32,000 nucleotides of DNA from Cystobacter fuscus (GCF_044360685.1 NZ_CP043491.1:3916026-3948025), one strand, 5' to 3'; shown: positions 3,963-12,402, counted from the first letter of the stretch. Program-made: numbers and translations. Notes: generated by a model from the sequence alone, not told the origin.

Positions 3963-4622
3963 TCACTCCTTGTCCGCGTCGACCGGCCGATTGGGAATCA
4001 GGTGGTTCTTGAACCCCTGCCCGAGCAGGTACCGCCAAGACTCAAGAATGTCTCGAGGGAGGACATGCTCGGCCTGAAAGCCCAATTTCGGATACTCGAT
4101 GATGCGATGGAGGTCTCCGACCATCTCATCGATCACGCCCAACACACCCACGATGTTCGACACCTCCTCGGGAAAACCGATCGCGGGACAGTCCACCTGG
4201 ACCTTGATGCCCGGCCAGTGGACGGCGGCCGTCAGGAGCACCCGCAGGACGGAGTTGGGCTTGGTGATGAACGTCACCGTCCTGGCGTGCGGTACCAGCT
4301 GCCTCGAGAACGAGATGTTCTCCCCGAAGTGGGTCGCGCGCTCCTCGAGGATGACCGAGGACTCGGCCACCCCCGCCGCCCGGGCCCGGGCCAGGAAGAC
4401 CTGGGCCTCCGGCTTGCTCCACAGATGCCGCGTCCAATTGCCGGTGTTGCCGCTGAGCACCAACTGCCTGGCCAACCCACTTCCGAGGAGCTCACAGGCG
4501 TAGTCGCACACGCGAAGATCGTACGAGCAACAGACCACCGCGACATCACATGGCGCCCTCGTCTTGAACGAGGACATGTACTCCCAGAGCCGAAGTGCGT
4601 GCTGCATCGTCAGTGTCGACAT
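3963..4622 (-). CDS. DUF218 / YdcF-like (ElyC/SanA superfamily) protein
   Basis: Track ORF 3963-4649 (TTG start), trimmed to ATG 4622, which is preceded by GGGGGAG. The sequence pattern (DVAVVCCSYDLRV...LVLSGNTGNWT...EERATHFGENISFS...FITKP) matches my recollection of the YdcF/DUF218 Rossmann-like fold. It starts 27 nt downstream of the MFS stop. Confidence 0.7.
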   Translation of the reverse strand: MSTLTMQHALRLWEYMSSFKTRAPCDVAVVCCSYDLRVCDYACELLGSGLARQLVLSGNTGNWTRHLWSKPEAQVFLARARAAGVAESSVILEERATHFGENISFSRQLVPHARTVTFITKPNSVLRVLLTAAVHWPGIKVQVDCPAIGFPEEVSNIVGVLGVIDEMVGDLHRIIEYPKLGFQAEHVLPRDILESWRYLLGQGFKNHLIPNRPVDADKE

Positions 4623-4649
4623 GTGGCTCCCCCAGGGGGTAGAGGCCAA

Positions 4650-6122
4650 CTATCTGGACACAGCGGGGCCGCTTTCGTCCACGACGGTCTTGAGCACCTC
4701 CGGTTGCTTGCGGATTCCCAGGCTGAGCGGCACGGCCACCAGCGCGACGAGCGTGGCCACCAGGTAGACGTCGTTGATGCCCTCCACGAACGAGAACAAC
4801 TCGATATGACGGCGCTCCGTCATCCCCTGGCTCACGAGCACCTCGGCCTCCCGGGCCGTGAAGGTGGACAGGAGCGACGTGAAGATGGCGATCGAGAACG
4901 CCCCGAACACGTTTCTCAACCAGTTGCTGATGGAGGAGGCGTGGCCGCTCAGCTCGCGGGGAATCTGCTCCATGCCCGCGTTGCTGGCCGGCATCATGGA
5001 GAGCGAGATTCCCACGTTCCGCACCACCATCCATACCAACATGTAGGATTGTGAAACCTCCGGCGTCAAACGGCTCAAGGCATACGTGCCTCCCGCGATC
5101 AGCAGCACGCCGGTCGTCATGAGCGTGCTCGGCCCGATCGGGCCATACATGCGCCCAACGAAGGGCATCAGGAGCGCCATGGCCAGGGAGGCCGGAAGGA
5201 GGAGCAATCCGGTCTGAAGCGGCGTCACGCCCTGGATCTTCTGCAGGAACACCGGCACGAGGAACGCGCCCGAGTACAGGCTGATCGTGATGATGCTCGA
5301 GATGAGCAGCGTCACCAGATAGCGGCCGTTCGCGAGCACACGCAGATCGAGCAGCGGAGCGCTCGTCCTCAACTCCCTGACGACGAAGACGATCAGTGAC
5401 ACCGTCCCGAGCACGAACAGGGACACGGTCTTCGCATGCGTCCAGCTCCAGCCCCTCCCCTGGCTCAGGGCGATCAGCAGCGACAGGGTGCCGGTGATGA
5501 CGGTGAGCAGTCCGGGGAGATCGAAGGCCTTCGGGGCCTGCAAGCGATAGAAGGGAATGGTCCGCAGGGCCAGGCCCACGGCGACGAGGCCGAGCGGAAC
5601 GTTGATGAAGAACAACCACCGCCAGTTGCCCAGGGTGATCAACCAGCCCGCGAAGGTCGGCCCGAACGCGGGCGCGAGGCTCGCCGACAGGCTCCAGAGA
5701 CTGGCGGCCAGCGCCTGCCGTTCCCGGGGAAGGACCTGGTAGATGAGCGTCATGGTCACGGGCATGATGGCGCCGCAGAACGCGCCCTGCAGGAACCGGA
5801 AGGCCACGAGCGAGCCCGCATCCCAGGCCAACCCACACAGCACGGACGCCAGGGTGAAGCCCACCAGGTTGGCCACGTACACCCATTTGAAACTGAAGCG
5901 CCCACCGAGATAGCCGGTGAGCGGCGCGCTCGTGCCCATGGCGAGCATGAAGCCCGTCAGGGTCCATTGCAGCAGGGAGAGGTCGGCTCCGAAATACCGC
6001 TGCAATTCGGGAATGGCGATCGTGATCGTACTGGAACTCAGCACGGACATGAACGACCCGGCGAAGAGGGCGAACATGAACGGCCAGAAGCGGATGGCTC
6101 GTGGCTCTTCTGATGGGTGCAT
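4650..6122 (-). CDS. MFS transporter, DHA2 (EmrB/QacA-like, 14-TMS) drug:H+ antiporter family
   Basis: Track ORF 4650-6287, trimmed to ATG 6122 (MHPSEEPRAIRFWPFMFALFAGSFMSVL). Typical DHA2 N-terminal motifs are present (LSSSTITIAIPELQRYFG, WTLTGFMLAMGTSAPLTGYLGGRF, FRFLQGAFCGAIMP), with many hydrophobic segments along about 490 aa. Confidence 0.9.
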   Translation of the reverse strand: MHPSEEPRAIRFWPFMFALFAGSFMSVLSSSTITIAIPELQRYFGADLSLLQWTLTGFMLAMGTSAPLTGYLGGRFSFKWVYVANLVGFTLASVLCGLAWDAGSLVAFRFLQGAFCGAIMPVTMTLIYQVLPRERQALAASLWSLSASLAPAFGPTFAGWLITLGNWRWLFFINVPLGLVAVGLALRTIPFYRLQAPKAFDLPGLLTVITGTLSLLIALSQGRGWSWTHAKTVSLFVLGTVSLIVFVVRELRTSAPLLDLRVLANGRYLVTLLISSIITISLYSGAFLVPVFLQKIQGVTPLQTGLLLLPASLAMALLMPFVGRMYGPIGPSTLMTTGVLLIAGGTYALSRLTPEVSQSYMLVWMVVRNVGISLSMMPASNAGMEQIPRELSGHASSISNWLRNVFGAFSIAIFTSLLSTFTAREAEVLVSQGMTERRHIELFSFVEGINDVYLVATLVALVAVPLSLGIRKQPEVLKTVVDESGPAVSR

Positions 6123-6133
6123 GGGGCGGGCTA

Positions 6134-7363
6134 TTACCAGACCAGCGGCAGGCTCGCGATCGCCAGGTTGAAGCCACCCACGAACCGGGGCTTCTTCTCG
6201 GGATCCAAACGGAACGGCGGCACGCGCTTCAACCACTCCTGGTAGAACACCTTCATCTCCAGGCGGGCCAGGTTCAGACCGACGCACCGGTGCGGACCCG
6301 TGTTGAACGTCTGGTGCTGCTCCTTGCGGCCCAGGATGAACTGCTCGGGGTTGGGGAACGCCGCGTCATCGTAGTTGGCCGCGGGCAGGAGCAACGACAC
6401 CGTGTCGCCCTTCTTGAATTGGACGCCATGGCAGACCTCGTCGCGCATCACCTGCCGGACCGTGGACGCGATGCCATAGAGCCGCAGCAGCTCCTCGATG
6501 GCTCCGGGCAGGAGGCTGGGGTCGGCCCGGAGCTTCGCCTGCAACTCCTGATCGCGCGCCAGGTGCCGGACGCCAAAGCTCAGGGCATTCACCACGGTCT
6601 CCAGCCCGCCGAGGAACAAGGCGATGCTGTAGCCCAACATCTCCTGGAACGTGGGGTGGCGGCCGTCGATGTTCGCGTCGAGCAGATGGCTGATCAGATC
6701 CTCCTCGCGCTTCTCCTGCCGGGCCTTGATGGTCTCCGCCAGGATTCCCGCGATGCGTTTGAAGGTCGCCTCCCGGTCCGCGGGAGTCACCGTGGCGGAC
6801 GTCGCCTGGGTGGCCAGGTGACGGAACTCCGCCAGGCGGTCGGTCGGCATGCCCGCCAGCTTCATGAACAACGTGACGGGCAGCGGCTCGGCGATGTCCG
6901 AGAGGAAGTCGCAGCGTCCCGCGGCGAGCACCTTGTCGATGAGCTCGTTCGTCATGTCCCGGATCGCCGTCTCGAGTCCGGCAACGGACTTGGCCGACAG
7001 CGGCTGGTTGAGCGGCGCCCGGTACGCGGTGTGCCGCGGCGGATCCGCCGCGATGGGCAGCAGCATCAATCCCGGCTGCGAGTCCTTGTGTTCCCCCGAG
7101 TTGTGCCCCGAGACGAGGAAGGCGTTGCTGTAGACCTCCGGGTTCATCGTGATGTCCACGATCGCCTTCTTGCGGGTGACCACCCAGTTGCCACCGTTAT
7201 ACGGGGTGAAGAAGATGGGCGGGGCCTCGAGGATGAGGGAGCGCATCCGGGCGTGAGGATCCTCGAGCAACCGCGGATCCCTGGCGTTGTCGTATTCGTA
7301 GACCAGCTCCGGCGGAACGTGCGCGGGAATCTTGTCCAATTTCTGTCCGCTAAAGGCGCTCAT
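6134..7363 (-). CDS. cytochrome P450 (class I, ferredoxin-dependent, P450cam-like)
   Basis: 409 aa. Cys-ligand loop FNTGPHRCVGLNLA, I-helix GGLETV, and ExxR (EELLR). The stop lies 11 nt upstream of the MFS start. Confidence 0.93.
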   Translation of the reverse strand: MSAFSGQKLDKIPAHVPPELVYEYDNARDPRLLEDPHARMRSLILEAPPIFFTPYNGGNWVVTRKKAIVDITMNPEVYSNAFLVSGHNSGEHKDSQPGLMLLPIAADPPRHTAYRAPLNQPLSAKSVAGLETAIRDMTNELIDKVLAAGRCDFLSDIAEPLPVTLFMKLAGMPTDRLAEFRHLATQATSATVTPADREATFKRIAGILAETIKARQEKREEDLISHLLDANIDGRHPTFQEMLGYSIALFLGGLETVVNALSFGVRHLARDQELQAKLRADPSLLPGAIEELLRLYGIASTVRQVMRDEVCHGVQFKKGDTVSLLLPAANYDDAAFPNPEQFILGRKEQHQTFNTGPHRCVGLNLARLEMKVFYQEWLKRVPPFRLDPEKKPRFVGGFNLAIASLPLVW

Positions 7364-7414
7364 GTTCGATCTCTTTGTGGTTGGAGGAGGAAGCGTGGAG
7401 CCCTGTCCGGGCTC

Positions 7415-7741
7415 TCACTCGCCCGTCTGCGAGACGGGAAGACGGACCACCATCCCATCCAGCGCGGGCGTCACCTTGATCTGACAGGTCAACCGGCTGT
7501 TGGGTTGCACGTGGAAGGCGCACTCGATCATCGCCTCTTCCGCCGCATCGGGCGGGGGGATCTTCGTCCGCCAGGCCTCATCCACGTAGCCGTGGCAGGT
7601 CGCGCAACTGGCGAAGCCTCCACACTCGGCGACGATTCCCGGCACGAGGTTGTTCAGCGCCGCCTGCATGACGGACTGTCCCTCCTGCGCCTCGACCTCG
7701 TGCTCCTTGCCATCCGCCTCGATGAACTTGATCTTCGTCAT
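7415..7741 (-). CDS. [2Fe-2S] ferredoxin, adrenodoxin/putidaredoxin type
   Basis: 108 aa. Cluster ligands CGGFASCATCH (C-x5-C-x2-C) plus a distal Cys in RLTCQIKV. The gene sits 51 nt upstream of the P450. Confidence 0.92.
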   Translation of the reverse strand: MTKIKFIEADGKEHEVEAQEGQSVMQAALNNLVPGIVAECGGFASCATCHGYVDEAWRTKIPPPDAAEEAMIECAFHVQPNSRLTCQIKVTPALDGMVVRLPVSQTGE

Positions 7742-7814
7742 GGTTCCTCTTGGATTCCTGCCGGGTGTTGACTGTCTTCAAGCGGCGATGCTGTTGAGCG
7801 GGACGGCCGCGTGG

Positions 7815-8596
7815 TCAGTTCATCCGCTCATGGGGGGCGCACAGCCGCGCGCTCACCTTGGACACGGGGGACGCCCAGTGGTTTTCGAACCAGAAGTCGA
7901 GGAACAGCGGGGACGCACGGCCACGGCGGTACGCGGCCCAGATCCGCTTCGCGTATTCCGAGTGAACGACGCCGGACTGCCGGTCCTTGAGTTGCTGGAA
8001 CGTGCCGAGCAGCACGATGAGCATCGCGGTCCTTATCCCCAGGTTGCCCAGGACGTACGCCTGCAGCTCTATCTCGCCGATCACGTCCGTGCCGTAGCCC
8101 GTCACCAGGTGCAACAGGTCATGCGTCTCGCGGTAGCGCTTGGAGATGTAGTCGAGGTCGTTCTTGAGCTCGAGCGTCGTCGCGAAGGGCGAGATCTTGT
8201 TGTCGCGGAAGTAGCGCGCGAACTCATGGCCGAGCGTTCCTTCCGGCAGGCGATCGAGCGCGTCCAGGTCCAGATCCTTGGCCTCCAGCGAAGGGCGTTT
8301 GGACAGCAGACGGCGCCCCTCCTCGCCGCGCTGGAGCTTCTGGATGAGCGAGGCGTAGACGTTGTAGTCCAGGCAGGCATTGAGCGTCTGGCCATAGACG
8401 GGATTGCCCTCGTCGCCCTTGACCAGTTTCAGCAGCTTGAGCGACAAGCTCAGGCGGGTGAACAGGGAGGCGTTTTCGGGCAGGATCAGGGTCTTGGGAT
8501 CGATCGCGGGATTGGCTTGCATGATGGGGTCCAGGGTAGGGGGTCCTACTTCTGCGACAAGCGGCTCATCTGGTTGGAGATGAGCCGCGTCGCACA

Positions 8597-8597
<1 letters not shown>
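7815..8597 (-). CDS. Coq4-family protein (HDxxH-x12-E metal-binding motif)
   Basis: Track ORF 7815-8951, trimmed to ATG 8597, which overlaps the BVMO stop by one nucleotide (TGATG). The alternative start is ATG 8522. The motif THDLLHLVTGYGTDVIGEIE equals the Coq4 HDxxH...E signature. Length is about 235-260 aa. Confidence 0.72.
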
Positions 8598-10414
<1,817 letters not shown>

Positions 10415-10530
10415 TCGCACATATCCTTTCGACTCGATAGGCGCTCGTTCAGCGTTCCCGGTTCCACGGGCACGCTCCCGAGCATTTCTCAATCACTGCT
10501 CACTTCGGTTGCTTCGGACGTCTGGCGAGG

Positions 10531-11253
10531 TCACCGCCGGGCGGTGACGGGGGCCAGCCACAAGCCGACGAGCGCGTCGACCAGTCCGGCCGCGGTGGAC
10601 TCCCACGTCGAGTGGGGCATCACGGTGCCCTCTTGCAGCGCCCGTTCCCGTTCGGCGCACAAGTGCACGACCATCAACCGGCCCATGTCGTTGCGCTCCT
10701 GCTTCACGTCCTCGGGGAGACGAGGGATCAACTGGAACATGCCTTCGAGGCCCTGTTGCAGCGACCGCGAGGCATACGCCTCGTCGGCCAGGAGCTTTCG
10801 ATAGGAGGGATGGGTCGTCACCTGGGTGATGAACCGCGCGTACCAGGAGGGGCTGCCCAGCGAGGCGAGATGCTCGGTGGTTGGCCGTACGAGGCAGGAC
10901 ACCCAGTCGCGCAGGTCGGGCGAGCCGTTGACCTGTGCGAGCATGTCCATACGCCGCCGCTCGATCGACTCGGAGTGCCGGCGCACGATGGCCACCACGA
11001 GCTCCTCCTTGGAGCCGAAGTGGTAGCCGACGGCGAAATTGTTCGACTGGCCCGCCGCCTCGCTCACCTGACGGTTGGAGACCACCTCCACTCCGTGCTC
11101 GGCGAACAGCCGCTCCGCGGTGACGAGGAGCAATTCGCGGGTCTCGCTGCCCCGGTCGGATTTGCCCGAGCTCACCCTCGCACCGGAACCTGTGTGCTGC
11201 CGTCGGCACTCATCATGACCTCCGGAGGGGAGAAGGCCCGTCCTCGAACTCAT
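10531..11253 (-). CDS. TetR/AcrR-family transcriptional regulator
   Basis: N-terminal HTH block RELLLVTAERLFAEHGVEVVSNRQVSEAAGQSNNFAVGYHFGSKEELV. Start is ATG 11253; the alternative is GTG 11175. It is the first gene of the co-directional string. Confidence 0.9.
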   Translation of the reverse strand: MSSRTGLLPSGGHDECRRQHTGSGARVSSGKSDRGSETRELLLVTAERLFAEHGVEVVSNRQVSEAAGQSNNFAVGYHFGSKEELVVAIVRRHSESIERRRMDMLAQVNGSPDLRDWVSCLVRPTTEHLASLGSPSWYARFITQVTTHPSYRKLLADEAYASRSLQQGLEGMFQLIPRLPEDVKQERNDMGRLMVVHLCAERERALQEGTVMPHSTWESTAAGLVDALVGLWLAPVTARR

Positions 11254-11262
11254 GGGAGAAGG

Positions 11263-11299
11263 TTTAAGTCAATCGACTGATGAAGTCAACCGACTTAAA
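11263..11299. promoter_or_regulatory. candidate TetR operator: 37-bp inverted repeat made of two 12-bp palindromic units
   Basis: TTTAAGTCAATCGACT gatga AGTCAACCGACTTAAA. The arms match 13/16 as an inverted repeat. Each arm contains AGTC-N4-GACT (11267-11278 and 11284-11295, 11/12 identical). The element lies 10 nt upstream of the tetR ATG, in the divergent intergenic region. Confidence 0.5.
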
Positions 11300-11400
11300 T
11301 CACTGCCCGTCGACGAGGAGGGGAGCCGCGCCTCCTGGCCTGGGTTCGGGTGGGGGAGGGCGGACGTCAGGTTCCTCGGAAACCAGGCGTCCCGGCGCCC

Positions 11401-12402
11401 ATGAGAACCGAACGCATCTTCATCCCCACCCGCTCCGCCCCCGACTCTCTCTGCTGGTGTGGCGACACGCTCGTCGACTGGGTCGCCGGGGGCCGCTCCT
11501 ACGCGCTGGACGGACGCATCACCGAGTCCTCCGTGCTTTACAGCTACCGCTTCGACAGCGCGGTGATGTCCCAGGATGGCCAGTACGCCGTCCTCTACGA
11601 GAAGCTCGGGACGAAGGGGCTCCTGCTCCACCGGGGCCGGGTGCTCCGCGAGCTGAACCGCAGCTTCTACCACGCCGACACCTATGAGTACCCCGTCGCC
11701 CTGGTGACCCTGCCGAGCGGCCGCACGCTCCTGGCCCACTGCCCCGAGGAGTATTGCGAGCTGGAGCTCGAGGACGCCGAGACCGGGGAGCGGCTCACCC
11801 GGCGGGACAGCGAATCGCCTGACTTCTTCCACTCCCGGCTCCAGTTCAGCCGCGATGGGCGCTATCTGCTCAGCGCGGGGTGGATCTGGCATCCCGTGGA
11901 CGCGGCGCAGGTCTTCGACGTGGCCCGTGCGCTCGAGCAGCCCCGGTCGTTGGACGAGCCCAAGGAGATGGAGCTGGGTGATTCGTTCGTGGAGATCCAC
12001 TCGGCGGCCTTCGGTGAGCGGGACACGCTGGTCTTCGAGTGCTCGGGCCTGGAGGGTGAAGAGATTGCCCACCCGGATGGGCAGCCGAAGGGCTCGGTGG
12101 GACTCGCGGTGTACTCGCTCACCGAGCGTCGCGTCCTGTCCGTAGCCCCCTTGGAGAAGCCCGCGGGGACCCTGATGGTGGTGGGCGGGTACGCGGTCGG
12201 CTTCTACGAGCATCCCAAGCTTTTCGAGCTGACGACCGGACGCATCCTGGAGCAATGGCCTGAATTCCATACAGGCTGCCAGGGCAGCAGCATCATCCAC
12301 CACCTGCCGCCCTCGCCGCCGTTCGCGCTGGACCCTGCCGGCCACCGCTTCGCCGTGGCGACGGACAAGGGGATCGAGGTGGTCCGCATCCTGACGGAGT
12401 GA
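11401..12402 (+). CDS. hypothetical cytoplasmic protein, beta-propeller-like repeats
   Basis: Track ORF 11350-12402; ATG 11401 is preferred (MRTERIFIP). Recurrent strand-turn motifs are typical of PD40/WD-like blades (SQDGQYAVLYE, SRDGRYLLSAGWIWHP, DPAGHRFAVATDKGIEVVRI). There is no signal peptide and I recognise no family. Confidence 0.55.
   Translation: MRTERIFIPTRSAPDSLCWCGDTLVDWVAGGRSYALDGRITESSVLYSYRFDSAVMSQDGQYAVLYEKLGTKGLLLHRGRVLRELNRSFYHADTYEYPVALVTLPSGRTLLAHCPEEYCELELEDAETGERLTRRDSESPDFFHSRLQFSRDGRYLLSAGWIWHPVDAAQVFDVARALEQPRSLDEPKEMELGDSFVEIHSAAFGERDTLVFECSGLEGEEIAHPDGQPKGSVGLAVYSLTERRVLSVAPLEKPAGTLMVVGGYAVGFYEHPKLFELTTGRILEQWPEFHTGCQGSSIIHHLPPSPPFALDPAGHRFAVATDKGIEVVRILTE

Follow-up and report, generated by a model that had tools for sequence, protein, structure and literature searches.

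Organization of the gene string

The analysed window is a stretch of 32,000 nt from Cystobacter fuscus (NZ_CP043491.1:3916026-3948025), located at 3.916-3.948 Mb in an 11.85 Mb single-contig genome and having a GC content of 62-74%. Its minus strand carries a string of seven open reading frames (ORFs), which encode a TetR-family repressor, a Baeyer-Villiger monooxygenase (BVMO), a Coq4-family protein, a [2Fe-2S] ferredoxin (Fdx), a cytochrome P450, a DHA2-family pump of the major facilitator superfamily (MFS) and a DUF218 protein (Table 1). Comparison with related loci indicates that the string descends, with losses, from a gene set that is conserved among Archangiaceae; two short relics in it mark genes that have been deleted.

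Genes were identified by ORF listing combined with Pfam and NCBIfam scans. The seven minus-strand genes and their domains, as named in the original prediction made from the sequence alone, were all recovered, and the operon-like layout is supported. The proposed gaps of 116, 73, 51, 11 and 27 nt are correct, but the BVMO and Coq4 genes, thought to overlap (-1 nt), are separated by +74 nt. A scan for terminators and promoters inside the gene string found nothing exceeding the shuffled expectation. The DUF218 gene adjoins the pump gene only in the window and in a second C. fuscus locus (L001; loci in other genomes are denoted by L numbers). In C. fuscus DSM 2262 (L088), it is 3 kb off behind two genes, and it is absent in C. 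fuscus DSM 52655 (L089). The DUF218 gene is variable in position and presence and does not belong to the conserved cassette.

Table 1 Features of the gene string, listed from the operator downstream
Feature	Position	Strand	Evidence
Double operator, two AGTCN4GACT palindromes (TTTAAGTCGGTTGACTTCATCAGTCGATTGACTTAA on the minus strand)	11267-11295	-	Head of operon
14-codon leader ORF, MMSADGSTQVPVRG and stop	11172-11216	-	Translation
TetR-family repressor, TetR1 type, 214 aa from the probable start GTG 11175	10531-11175	-	PF00440, 34 bits
Type I BVMO, 605 aa, long-N-terminus clade	8597-10414	-	Domain scans and structure match
Remnant 3' end of a deleted short-chain dehydrogenase/reductase (SDR) gene, CATRLISNQMSRLSQK and TAG	8546-8596	-	Translation and alignment
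Coq4-family metalloprotein, 235 aa, ATG 8522	7815-8522	-	PF05019, 104.2 bits
Relic of a deleted ferredoxin reductase (FdR) gene, last 10 codons and stop, then the original FdR-Fdx spacer	7778-7812	-	Translation
Adrenodoxin/putidaredoxin-type [2Fe-2S] ferredoxin, 108 aa	7415-7741	-	PF00111, 46 bits
Class I cytochrome P450, CYP101-like, 409 aa	6134-7363	-	PF00067
DHA2-family MFS efflux pump, 490 aa	4650-6122	-	TIGR00711, 332.4 bits
DUF218 protein, 219 aa	3963-4622	-	PF02698

Operator, leader and repressor

In a scan of the entire genome, the double operator was detected at just two sites, one in the window and the other at 6.80 Mb, where it precedes a TetR1 paralogue 79% identical to the window TetR. 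This second unit (6800210-6801830) continues with an SDR-like gene. The same double operator heads homologous operons at 15 related loci and is conserved ahead of the fuller gene sets of Archangium and Vitiosangium described below; a scan of the string revealed no second operator within the cluster. TetR copies 77-91% identical to the window protein head related operons. Matches to solved TetR structures (best E value, 1e-9) span the DNA-binding domain and extend, at best, over a portion of the remaining sequence.

The TetR open frame spans 10531-11253, reaching ATG 11253, and orthologues in relatives are 214-236 aa long; judging from these lengths, GTG 11175 is most likely the start, rather than ATG 11253. 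The TGA codon of the leader ORF overlaps this GTG (GTGA). The leader codons, M(M)SADDxxQVLDxPF, are found upstream of TetR1 in L088, L089, L001, L008, L002, L004 and L007, and form an N-terminal extension of Coq4 in L009, L006 and L015. The leader ORF may encode a leader peptide that acts in coupling, or it may be left over from the deletion or fusion of a Coq4 gene. The stretch from the operator to the first gene (11172-11260 on the minus strand of the window), compared in the window, L002, L004, L007, L008, L009, L006 and L015, is conserved and features GTGGGCTCGAGGACGRGCC, a possible 6-bp hairpin, then a ribosome-binding site and the short ORF, which in some genomes is an upstream ORF of 14-22 codons with a stop overlapping the tetR start.

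Relatives of the oxidative enzymes and the pump

The BVMO carries the FxGxxxHxxxW[P/D] fingerprint and two Rossmann GxGxxG/A motifs, including GTGATS, and its Pfam and NCBIfam matches are to Pyr_redox_3/FMO-like models. Its closest solved relative is the polycyclic ketone monooxygenase PockeMO (5mq6, 3e-141, residues 15-597); phenylacetone, cyclohexanone and steroid monooxygenases match at 1e-81 to 1e-68. The long N-terminal extension attributed to the BVMO is real, as the PockeMO match begins at residue 15, and it probably places the enzyme in the PockeMO/cyclopentadecanone monooxygenase clade, although PockeMO, unlike the window BVMO, is fungal. The best family model is that of the (neo)pentalenolactone D synthases PtlE/PenE/PntE, but the equivalog test failed (783.7 bits against a cut-off of 1100). 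In a BVMO tree, the window protein groups with C. fuscus orthologues, next with a Nannocystis sequence (L020) and then with its own paralogue.

The ferredoxin features the ligand pattern CX5CX2C...C and is 84-95% identical in relatives. The best solved relative of the P450, in which the motifs FxxGxHxCxG and EELLR are present, is CYP101J2 (5kyo, 1.6e-73), followed by CYP101D1/D2 and P450cam (to ~1e-57). Consistent with the camphor-type logic suggested earlier for the locus, a class I P450, a ferredoxin and a BVMO are placed behind a TetR repressor, as in camphor/cineole-type pathways. Under the P450 nomenclature rule, membership of a CYP family takes >40% identity to a member; assignment to CYP101 was rejected at 37% identity, and the protein is labelled CYP101-like. 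Its best NCBIfam match, pentalenolactone synthase (100 bits), is far below the cut-off. Elsewhere in the genome (2295092-2298621), a TetR gene of family f48 is divergent from two tandem P450 genes, one of which encodes a protein 85% identical to the L002 orthologue of the window P450.

The pump scores above the DHA2 family cut-off (230.2 bits). An MFS gene comes after the P450 gene in 9 related scanned loci, and in L088 and L089 as well.

Scar of an older deletion between the BVMO and Coq4 genes

The Coq4 start had been placed at an ATG sharing a base with the BVMO stop codon. The letters TGATG do exist at the BVMO end (ATG at 8597), but the conserved start is ATG 8522, 75 nt downstream. Among the 120 homologues listed, Coq4 proteins are 226-258 aa long, and most begin at the position of ATG 8522; the closest, 87-88% identical, are from C. 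fuscus. Comparison of the regions upstream of Coq4 across 20 related loci revealed that the 74 nt from the BVMO stop to ATG 8522 share homology with the 3' terminus of an SDR gene located ahead of Coq4 in relatives. Translation of the window past the BVMO TGA, without a change of frame, yields CATRLISNQMSRLSQK and then TAG. This relic aligns with the SDR C-termini of L006, L008, L010 and others, which end in YRLNPQRAARFIYNQMSSLLPK and stop; intact SDR C-termini end in NPQRAARFIYNQMSSLLPK and stop.

The supposed 25-codon N-terminal extension of Coq4 is the SDR relic read in another frame, and all 4 of its 4 codon differences from L001 are nonsynonymous. In DSM 2262, a 1-nt indel puts the ATG of TGATG out of frame with Coq4 (9001 minus 8925 = 76). 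Because the extension misreads the SDR relic and the DSM 2262 ATG is out of frame, the TGATG overlap is an accident of the deletion by which the SDR tail became fused to the end of the BVMO gene. The window, L001, L088 and L089 have this scar in common, and in L090, a metagenome contig, an intact SDR end is found 24 nt upstream of Coq4. Direct adjacency of the two genes occurs only in the C. fuscus group, where it arose through deletion of the genes for a ScyE-like beta-propeller and the SDR from between them, and tight coupling as a sign of a two-enzyme step is unsupported.

Scar of a recent deletion of the reductase gene

The sequence immediately after the Coq4 stop, AAVPLNSIAA followed by a stop codon (7778-7810), corresponds to the C-terminus of the FdR of relatives, which in L088 ends in TRLGDVAVPLNSIAA and stop. 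The syntenic loci of DSM 2262 and DSM 52655 are ordered TetR, BVMO, Coq4, FdR (414 aa), Fdx, P450, MFS, and FdR is also present in L002, L004, L006-L009, L013 and L015. This comparison indicates that the reductase gene was lost through a recent deletion of ~1.2 kb that left its terminal codons. Three-component class I P450 systems have FdR encoded alongside; in the window, FdR is deleted. The absence of a reductase gene from the string, as originally described, is confirmed, but the production and export of a small molecule deduced from it, together with the exporter and DUF218, is undercut because FdR has only recently been deleted and DUF218 is variable. The actual deletion scars show translational coupling and the missing reductase to have been false leads.

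FdR-less alleles with junctions differing from that of the window are present in two other close relatives. In L001 (10783-10850), the junction encodes MEERIAA and stop and reads ATGGAAGAGCGCATCG joined to CCGCTTGA, and L090 (1178-1300) keeps ~5 first and ~22 last FdR codons. The Coq4-Fdx part of the window is nearer to L090 (94.9% vs 91.9% nt), whereas its upstream scar is closer to that of C. fuscus, which makes the locus a mosaic. Independent deletions could account for the three junctions, as could stepwise shrinkage spread by recombination, and the FdR-less alleles provide a small, clear case of ongoing operon erosion or rewiring among close relatives. An FdR (72%) and Fdx (71%) gene pair at 6.3633-6.3649 Mb in the same genome could, by homology, serve the P450 in trans.

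A modular gene set conserved in relatives

Species-representative genomes were scanned for Coq4, which yielded 80 loci, nearly all in Myxococcota, and neighbour clustering was carried out over 86 loci. Genes in relatives were called by GC3 periodicity, a heuristic of our own; the related genomes are kin, and locus counts are not independent events. Two modules were recognized. Module A consists of a divergent TetR7 gene followed by the genes for the BVMO, a secreted beta-propeller protein, the SDR and Coq4a. Module B opens with the operator, after which come Coq4b and TetR1, whose order varies, and then FdR, Fdx, P450 and MFS. The two modules occur in tandem in A. gephyra (L006, L015) and Vitiosangium (L008), and the fuller Archangium/Vitiosangium set comprises TetR, BVMO, ScyE-like beta-propeller, SDR, Coq4, (TetR), FdR, Fdx, P450 and MFS. 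The beta-propeller protein belongs to the ScyD/ScyE family (104 bits, cut-off 80); a firm lactonase label was rejected in view of this NCBIfam match and of the weak matches to lactonases in the PDB.

The co-occurrence of Coq4 and BVMO across genomes, raised earlier as a check, was found: a BVMO gene is located within four genes of Coq4 in 13 of the 86 loci, in three of which it is directly adjacent. A P450 gene is found within four genes in 19/86. A TetR gene directly adjoins Coq4 in 37/86 loci, the regulators being drawn from at least 5 different TetR families. By comparison, the genome as a whole (11.85 Mb) has ~78 TetR_N matches, or roughly 1% of its genes. No terpene synthase, prenyltransferase, polyketide synthase or nonribosomal peptide synthetase was seen beside the fuller clusters (L006 was scanned, and none recurs across loci).

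The window is thus an A+B fusion of the L008 type minus the beta-propeller, the SDR, the second TetR and FdR, because its Coq4 falls in the module-B clade while a paralogue encoded at 9.98 Mb groups with module A. The Archangiaceae possess a conserved, modular, operator-controlled oxidative gene set, complete versions of which are found in Archangium gephyra and Vitiosangium.

The paralogous operon (G000:C1:9979254-9982860) includes a divergent TetR7 gene and BVMO (86%), SDR (90%) and Coq4 genes. It is devoid of a beta-propeller gene, and a gene for an HSL-type alpha/beta hydrolase (LipP1/chloramphenicol-hydrolase-like) adjoins the TetR gene. In C. fuscus NCWS (L012:7440-10043), the paralogous BVMO and SDR form a single 867-aa frame, which may reflect a genuine fusion or a 1-nt error of assembly. 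L001 derives from the same assembly, and its Fdx, P450 and BVMO frames are split; these breaks may be assembly errors.

Coq4-family proteins outside quinone synthesis

The window Coq4 protein scores far above the PF05019 gathering cut-off (104.2 versus 22.9 bits) and matches two solved homologues, 3msq (6.3e-17) and the cyanobacterial Alr8543 (6e12, 4.8e-14). Its metal motif is intact, as originally reported, but reads HDLLH-x11-E; the spacing is x11, the canonical Coq4 value, and not x12. HDxxH-x11-E is intact in all 88 of the 88 myxobacterial family proteins examined. In a Coq4 tree, the window protein belongs to the clade of module B, the P450 module (support 98/94), and the paralogue encoded at 9.98 Mb lies among module-A copies. 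An AlphaFold2 model obtained from a 14-sequence alignment had a pLDDT of 49.6, too poor for a fold search, and was not used. Some of the changes that distinguish the window protein from that of C. fuscus DSM 2262 fall in the N-terminal helix (TRLSLSLKLLKLVKGD vs TRLRIATRILMVIKGN).

PF05019 is patchily distributed in the phylum, being found in 26 of the 201 Myxococcota genomes sampled; it is present in 13/13 genomes of one genus and in 0/16 of another. The seven matches in the genome analysed here are the most in the sample. In this complete genome, neither UbiA (best 64.5 bits, cut-off 275) nor UbiG (best 55 bits, cut-off 103) was found above the cut-off, and the Coq4-like proteins are accordingly not taken to be enzymes of ubiquinone synthesis in this organism.

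In coenzyme Q synthesis, eukaryotic COQ4 decarboxylates and hydroxylates C1 of a prenylated hydroxybenzoate in an O2-dependent reaction, an activity known for the eukaryotic protein only, and its binuclear site resembles those of metallohydrolases (10.1101/2023.11.13.566839). In Alr8543, two Mg ions are held by motif residues beside a hydrophobic pocket (10.1101/2023.11.13.566839). The window protein shares with COQ4, Alr8543 and 3msq the PF05019 domain and the HDxxH-x11-E motif, and is homologous in sequence to both solved bacterial proteins. In contrast to COQ4, it is encoded, with six paralogues, in a genome without UbiA or UbiG above the cut-offs and has no quinone context; myxobacterial copies sit in TetR-controlled P450/BVMO operons or pair with TetR/MarR genes. 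The novel part is the occurrence of Coq4 in such operons of bacteria lacking ubiquinone genes. A literature search for Coq4 in combination with myxobacteria, or with P450/BVMO clusters, found nothing relevant among the papers it covered.

The invariant motif, the presence of one paralogue clade per module and the TetR/MarR linkage argue for a real, metal-dependent role of Coq4 on the substrates of the surrounding enzymes. The protein would either catalyse a metal-dependent step on the lipophilic substrate of these enzymes or bind it. More specifically, though only tentatively, the Coq4 proteins of myxobacteria without ubiquinone might be binuclear-metal enzymes, quinone-independent and ligand-induced through TetR/MarR regulators. 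Their substrates would be lipophilic acids, esters or lactones of alicyclic or aromatic type, with decarboxylation/hydroxylation and the hydrolysis of lactones as possible reactions, and one specialized paralogue would belong to the P450 module and another to the BVMO module of a xenobiotic-oxidation pathway. The myxobacterial paralogues, with their invariant metal motif and linkage to ligand-sensing repressors, offer the family a tractable bacterial setting outside quinone synthesis, which could help to settle the chemistry of the Coq4 fold.

Proposed role of the operon and alternatives

We propose, with a probability of roughly 0.6, that the string is an autoregulated, TetR-derepressed operon for the ligand-induced oxidation and efflux (detoxification or catabolism) of an exogenous small lipophilic alicyclic, terpenoid-like compound, present here in truncated form. 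The operon would run from the double operator and short leader ORF through tetR and the BVMO, Coq4, ferredoxin and P450 genes to the DHA2 pump gene. Binding of the compound to TetR would cause the repressor to leave the AGTCN4GACT operators. In the fuller version, the CYP101-like class I P450, working with FdR and ferredoxin, would hydroxylate the compound, the SDR would convert the alcohol to a ketone, the BVMO, of the PockeMO/PtlE clade, would convert the ketone to a lactone or ester, and the secreted ScyD/ScyE-family beta-propeller protein would possibly open the lactone. The DHA2 exporter would provide efflux, and each module would have one Coq4-family metalloprotein. In this strain, the SDR and beta-propeller genes went in an older deletion and the reductase gene in a more recent one; the P450 would here depend on a reductase from elsewhere, such as that of the 6.36 Mb FdR-Fdx pair. 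Xenobiotic-response units (TetR/QacR/EmrR-type systems) usually combine a TetR gene with a DHA2 pump.

Among the closest known systems are the camphor genes camRDCAB of the Pseudomonas putida CAM plasmid and the CYP101J2 (1,8-cineole hydroxylase) and CYP101D1/D2 systems. Features in common are the TetR repressor, the class I P450, the putidaredoxin-type ferredoxin and, in relatives of the window, the FAD reductase, and in both cases a dehydrogenase and a Baeyer-Villiger oxygenation would follow the P450 step. The complete cam/cin-type set, with P450, dehydrogenase and BVMO under TetR, is found only in relatives. The systems also differ in several respects. The host is a myxobacterium, and the identity of its P450 to CYP101J2 is under the 40% line. 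The BVMO is a type I enzyme with a long N-terminus, whereas the camphor system has a two-component diketocamphane monooxygenase. Moreover, the unit contains a DHA2 exporter and Coq4-family proteins, and its reductase and dehydrogenase genes have been deleted in this strain.

Several observations weigh against the proposed role. The best match of the P450, CYP101J2, is only 37% identical over 391 aligned positions. An exporter is a poor fit to catabolism for growth. Without the SDR, beta-propeller and reductase genes, the pathway may be non-functional or rewired in this strain. The assignment of the beta-propeller as a lactonase rests on a modest match to the Pfam SGL model (59 bits). Finally, Coq4 is the fastest-evolving gene in the string, with a ratio of nonsynonymous to synonymous substitution rates (dN/dS) of 0.43-0.48 in comparisons with L088 and L089.

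Biosynthetic tailoring and export would mean that an endogenous terpenoid, quinone or aromatic metabolite is modified and secreted by the MFS pump, Coq4 either working alongside the BVMO as a ring decarboxylase/hydroxylase or serving as a scaffold-forming enzyme of an unconventional kind. We consider this unlikely. The Streptomyces pentalenolactone clusters (PtlE/PenE/PntE BVMO, PtlF SDR, PtlI and PntM P450s, PtlG exporter) share the combination of BVMO, SDR, P450 and MFS exporter, and it is from this terpenoid antibiotic cluster that the best NCBIfam matches of the BVMO (PtlE, 784 bits) and P450 (pentalenolactone synthase) originate; the pump is an exporter according to TIGR00711. Both scores, however, are far under their cut-offs, and the nearest solved relatives of the P450 are the camphor- and cineole-hydroxylating CYP101 enzymes. 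The regulator type differs, and terpene synthase, farnesyl diphosphate synthase, resistance glyceraldehyde-3-phosphate dehydrogenase and non-haem iron dioxygenase genes are missing here. The two Mg ions bound by motif residues of Alr8543 near a hydrophobic pocket (10.1101/2023.11.13.566839) count in favour of this reading, but many Coq4 genes stand alone beside TetR genes, without a recurring enzyme gene nearby. Two features that had spoken for biosynthesis, the coupling through TGATG and the missing reductase, are artefacts of deletion. Production or modification and export of a small molecule, as originally suggested, is not supported by any fuller cluster examined: none contains a scaffold-forming enzyme among its neighbours, be it a terpene synthase, a prenyltransferase or a PKS or NRPS. 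It is for this reason that induced oxidation and efflux is favoured.

It is also improbable that the string is a decaying remnant, which no longer runs the pathway after the loss of the SDR, beta-propeller and reductase genes and has intact ORFs because the losses are recent. The two deletion scars, the three different junctions of the FdR-less alleles (window, L001, L090), the split Fdx and P450 frames of L001 and the raised dN/dS of Coq4 speak for such a remnant. Nevertheless, the six core ORFs are all intact, and the BVMO, Fdx, P450 and MFS genes are under purifying selection, as evidenced by dN/dS values of 0.07-0.30 (0.10 for the BVMO) against C. fuscus at dS ~0.09-0.18. The SDR/beta-propeller deletion is old: four genomes have it in common, and all four retain BVMO and Coq4 genes, which are intact in three. 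Elsewhere the genome has paralogues of the SDR, beta-propeller and FdR-Fdx genes, and errors of assembly may explain the L001 frame breaks.

Signal turnover, in which TetR1 would sense a diffusible lipophilic autoregulator made or inactivated by Coq4, the P450 and the BVMO, is very unlikely: TetR-type butenolide receptors are encoded beside P450 genes in Streptomyces, the window TetR has weak matches to ScbR-type autoregulator receptors (40 bits) and AvaR1 chains, a TetR gene often adjoins Coq4 (37/86 loci) and the operator and leader are conserved, but the ScbR/AvaR1 matches are limited to the DNA-binding domain and score well under the cut-offs, the loci showed neither an AfsA-like nor any other signal synthase, and the idea is one of analogy only.

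Neighbouring gene and strain divergence

A gene divergent from tetR (11350-12402, plus strand) encodes a 333-aa protein without a family match. An orthologue is present in C. fuscus DSM 52655, and just a 72-aa ORF is called at this place in DSM 2262. The gene is missing from the other versions of the cluster and is therefore probably outside the system.

The divergence of TetR and of the P450 among strains is mosaic and strain-dependent, which suggests recombination among strains or paralogues.

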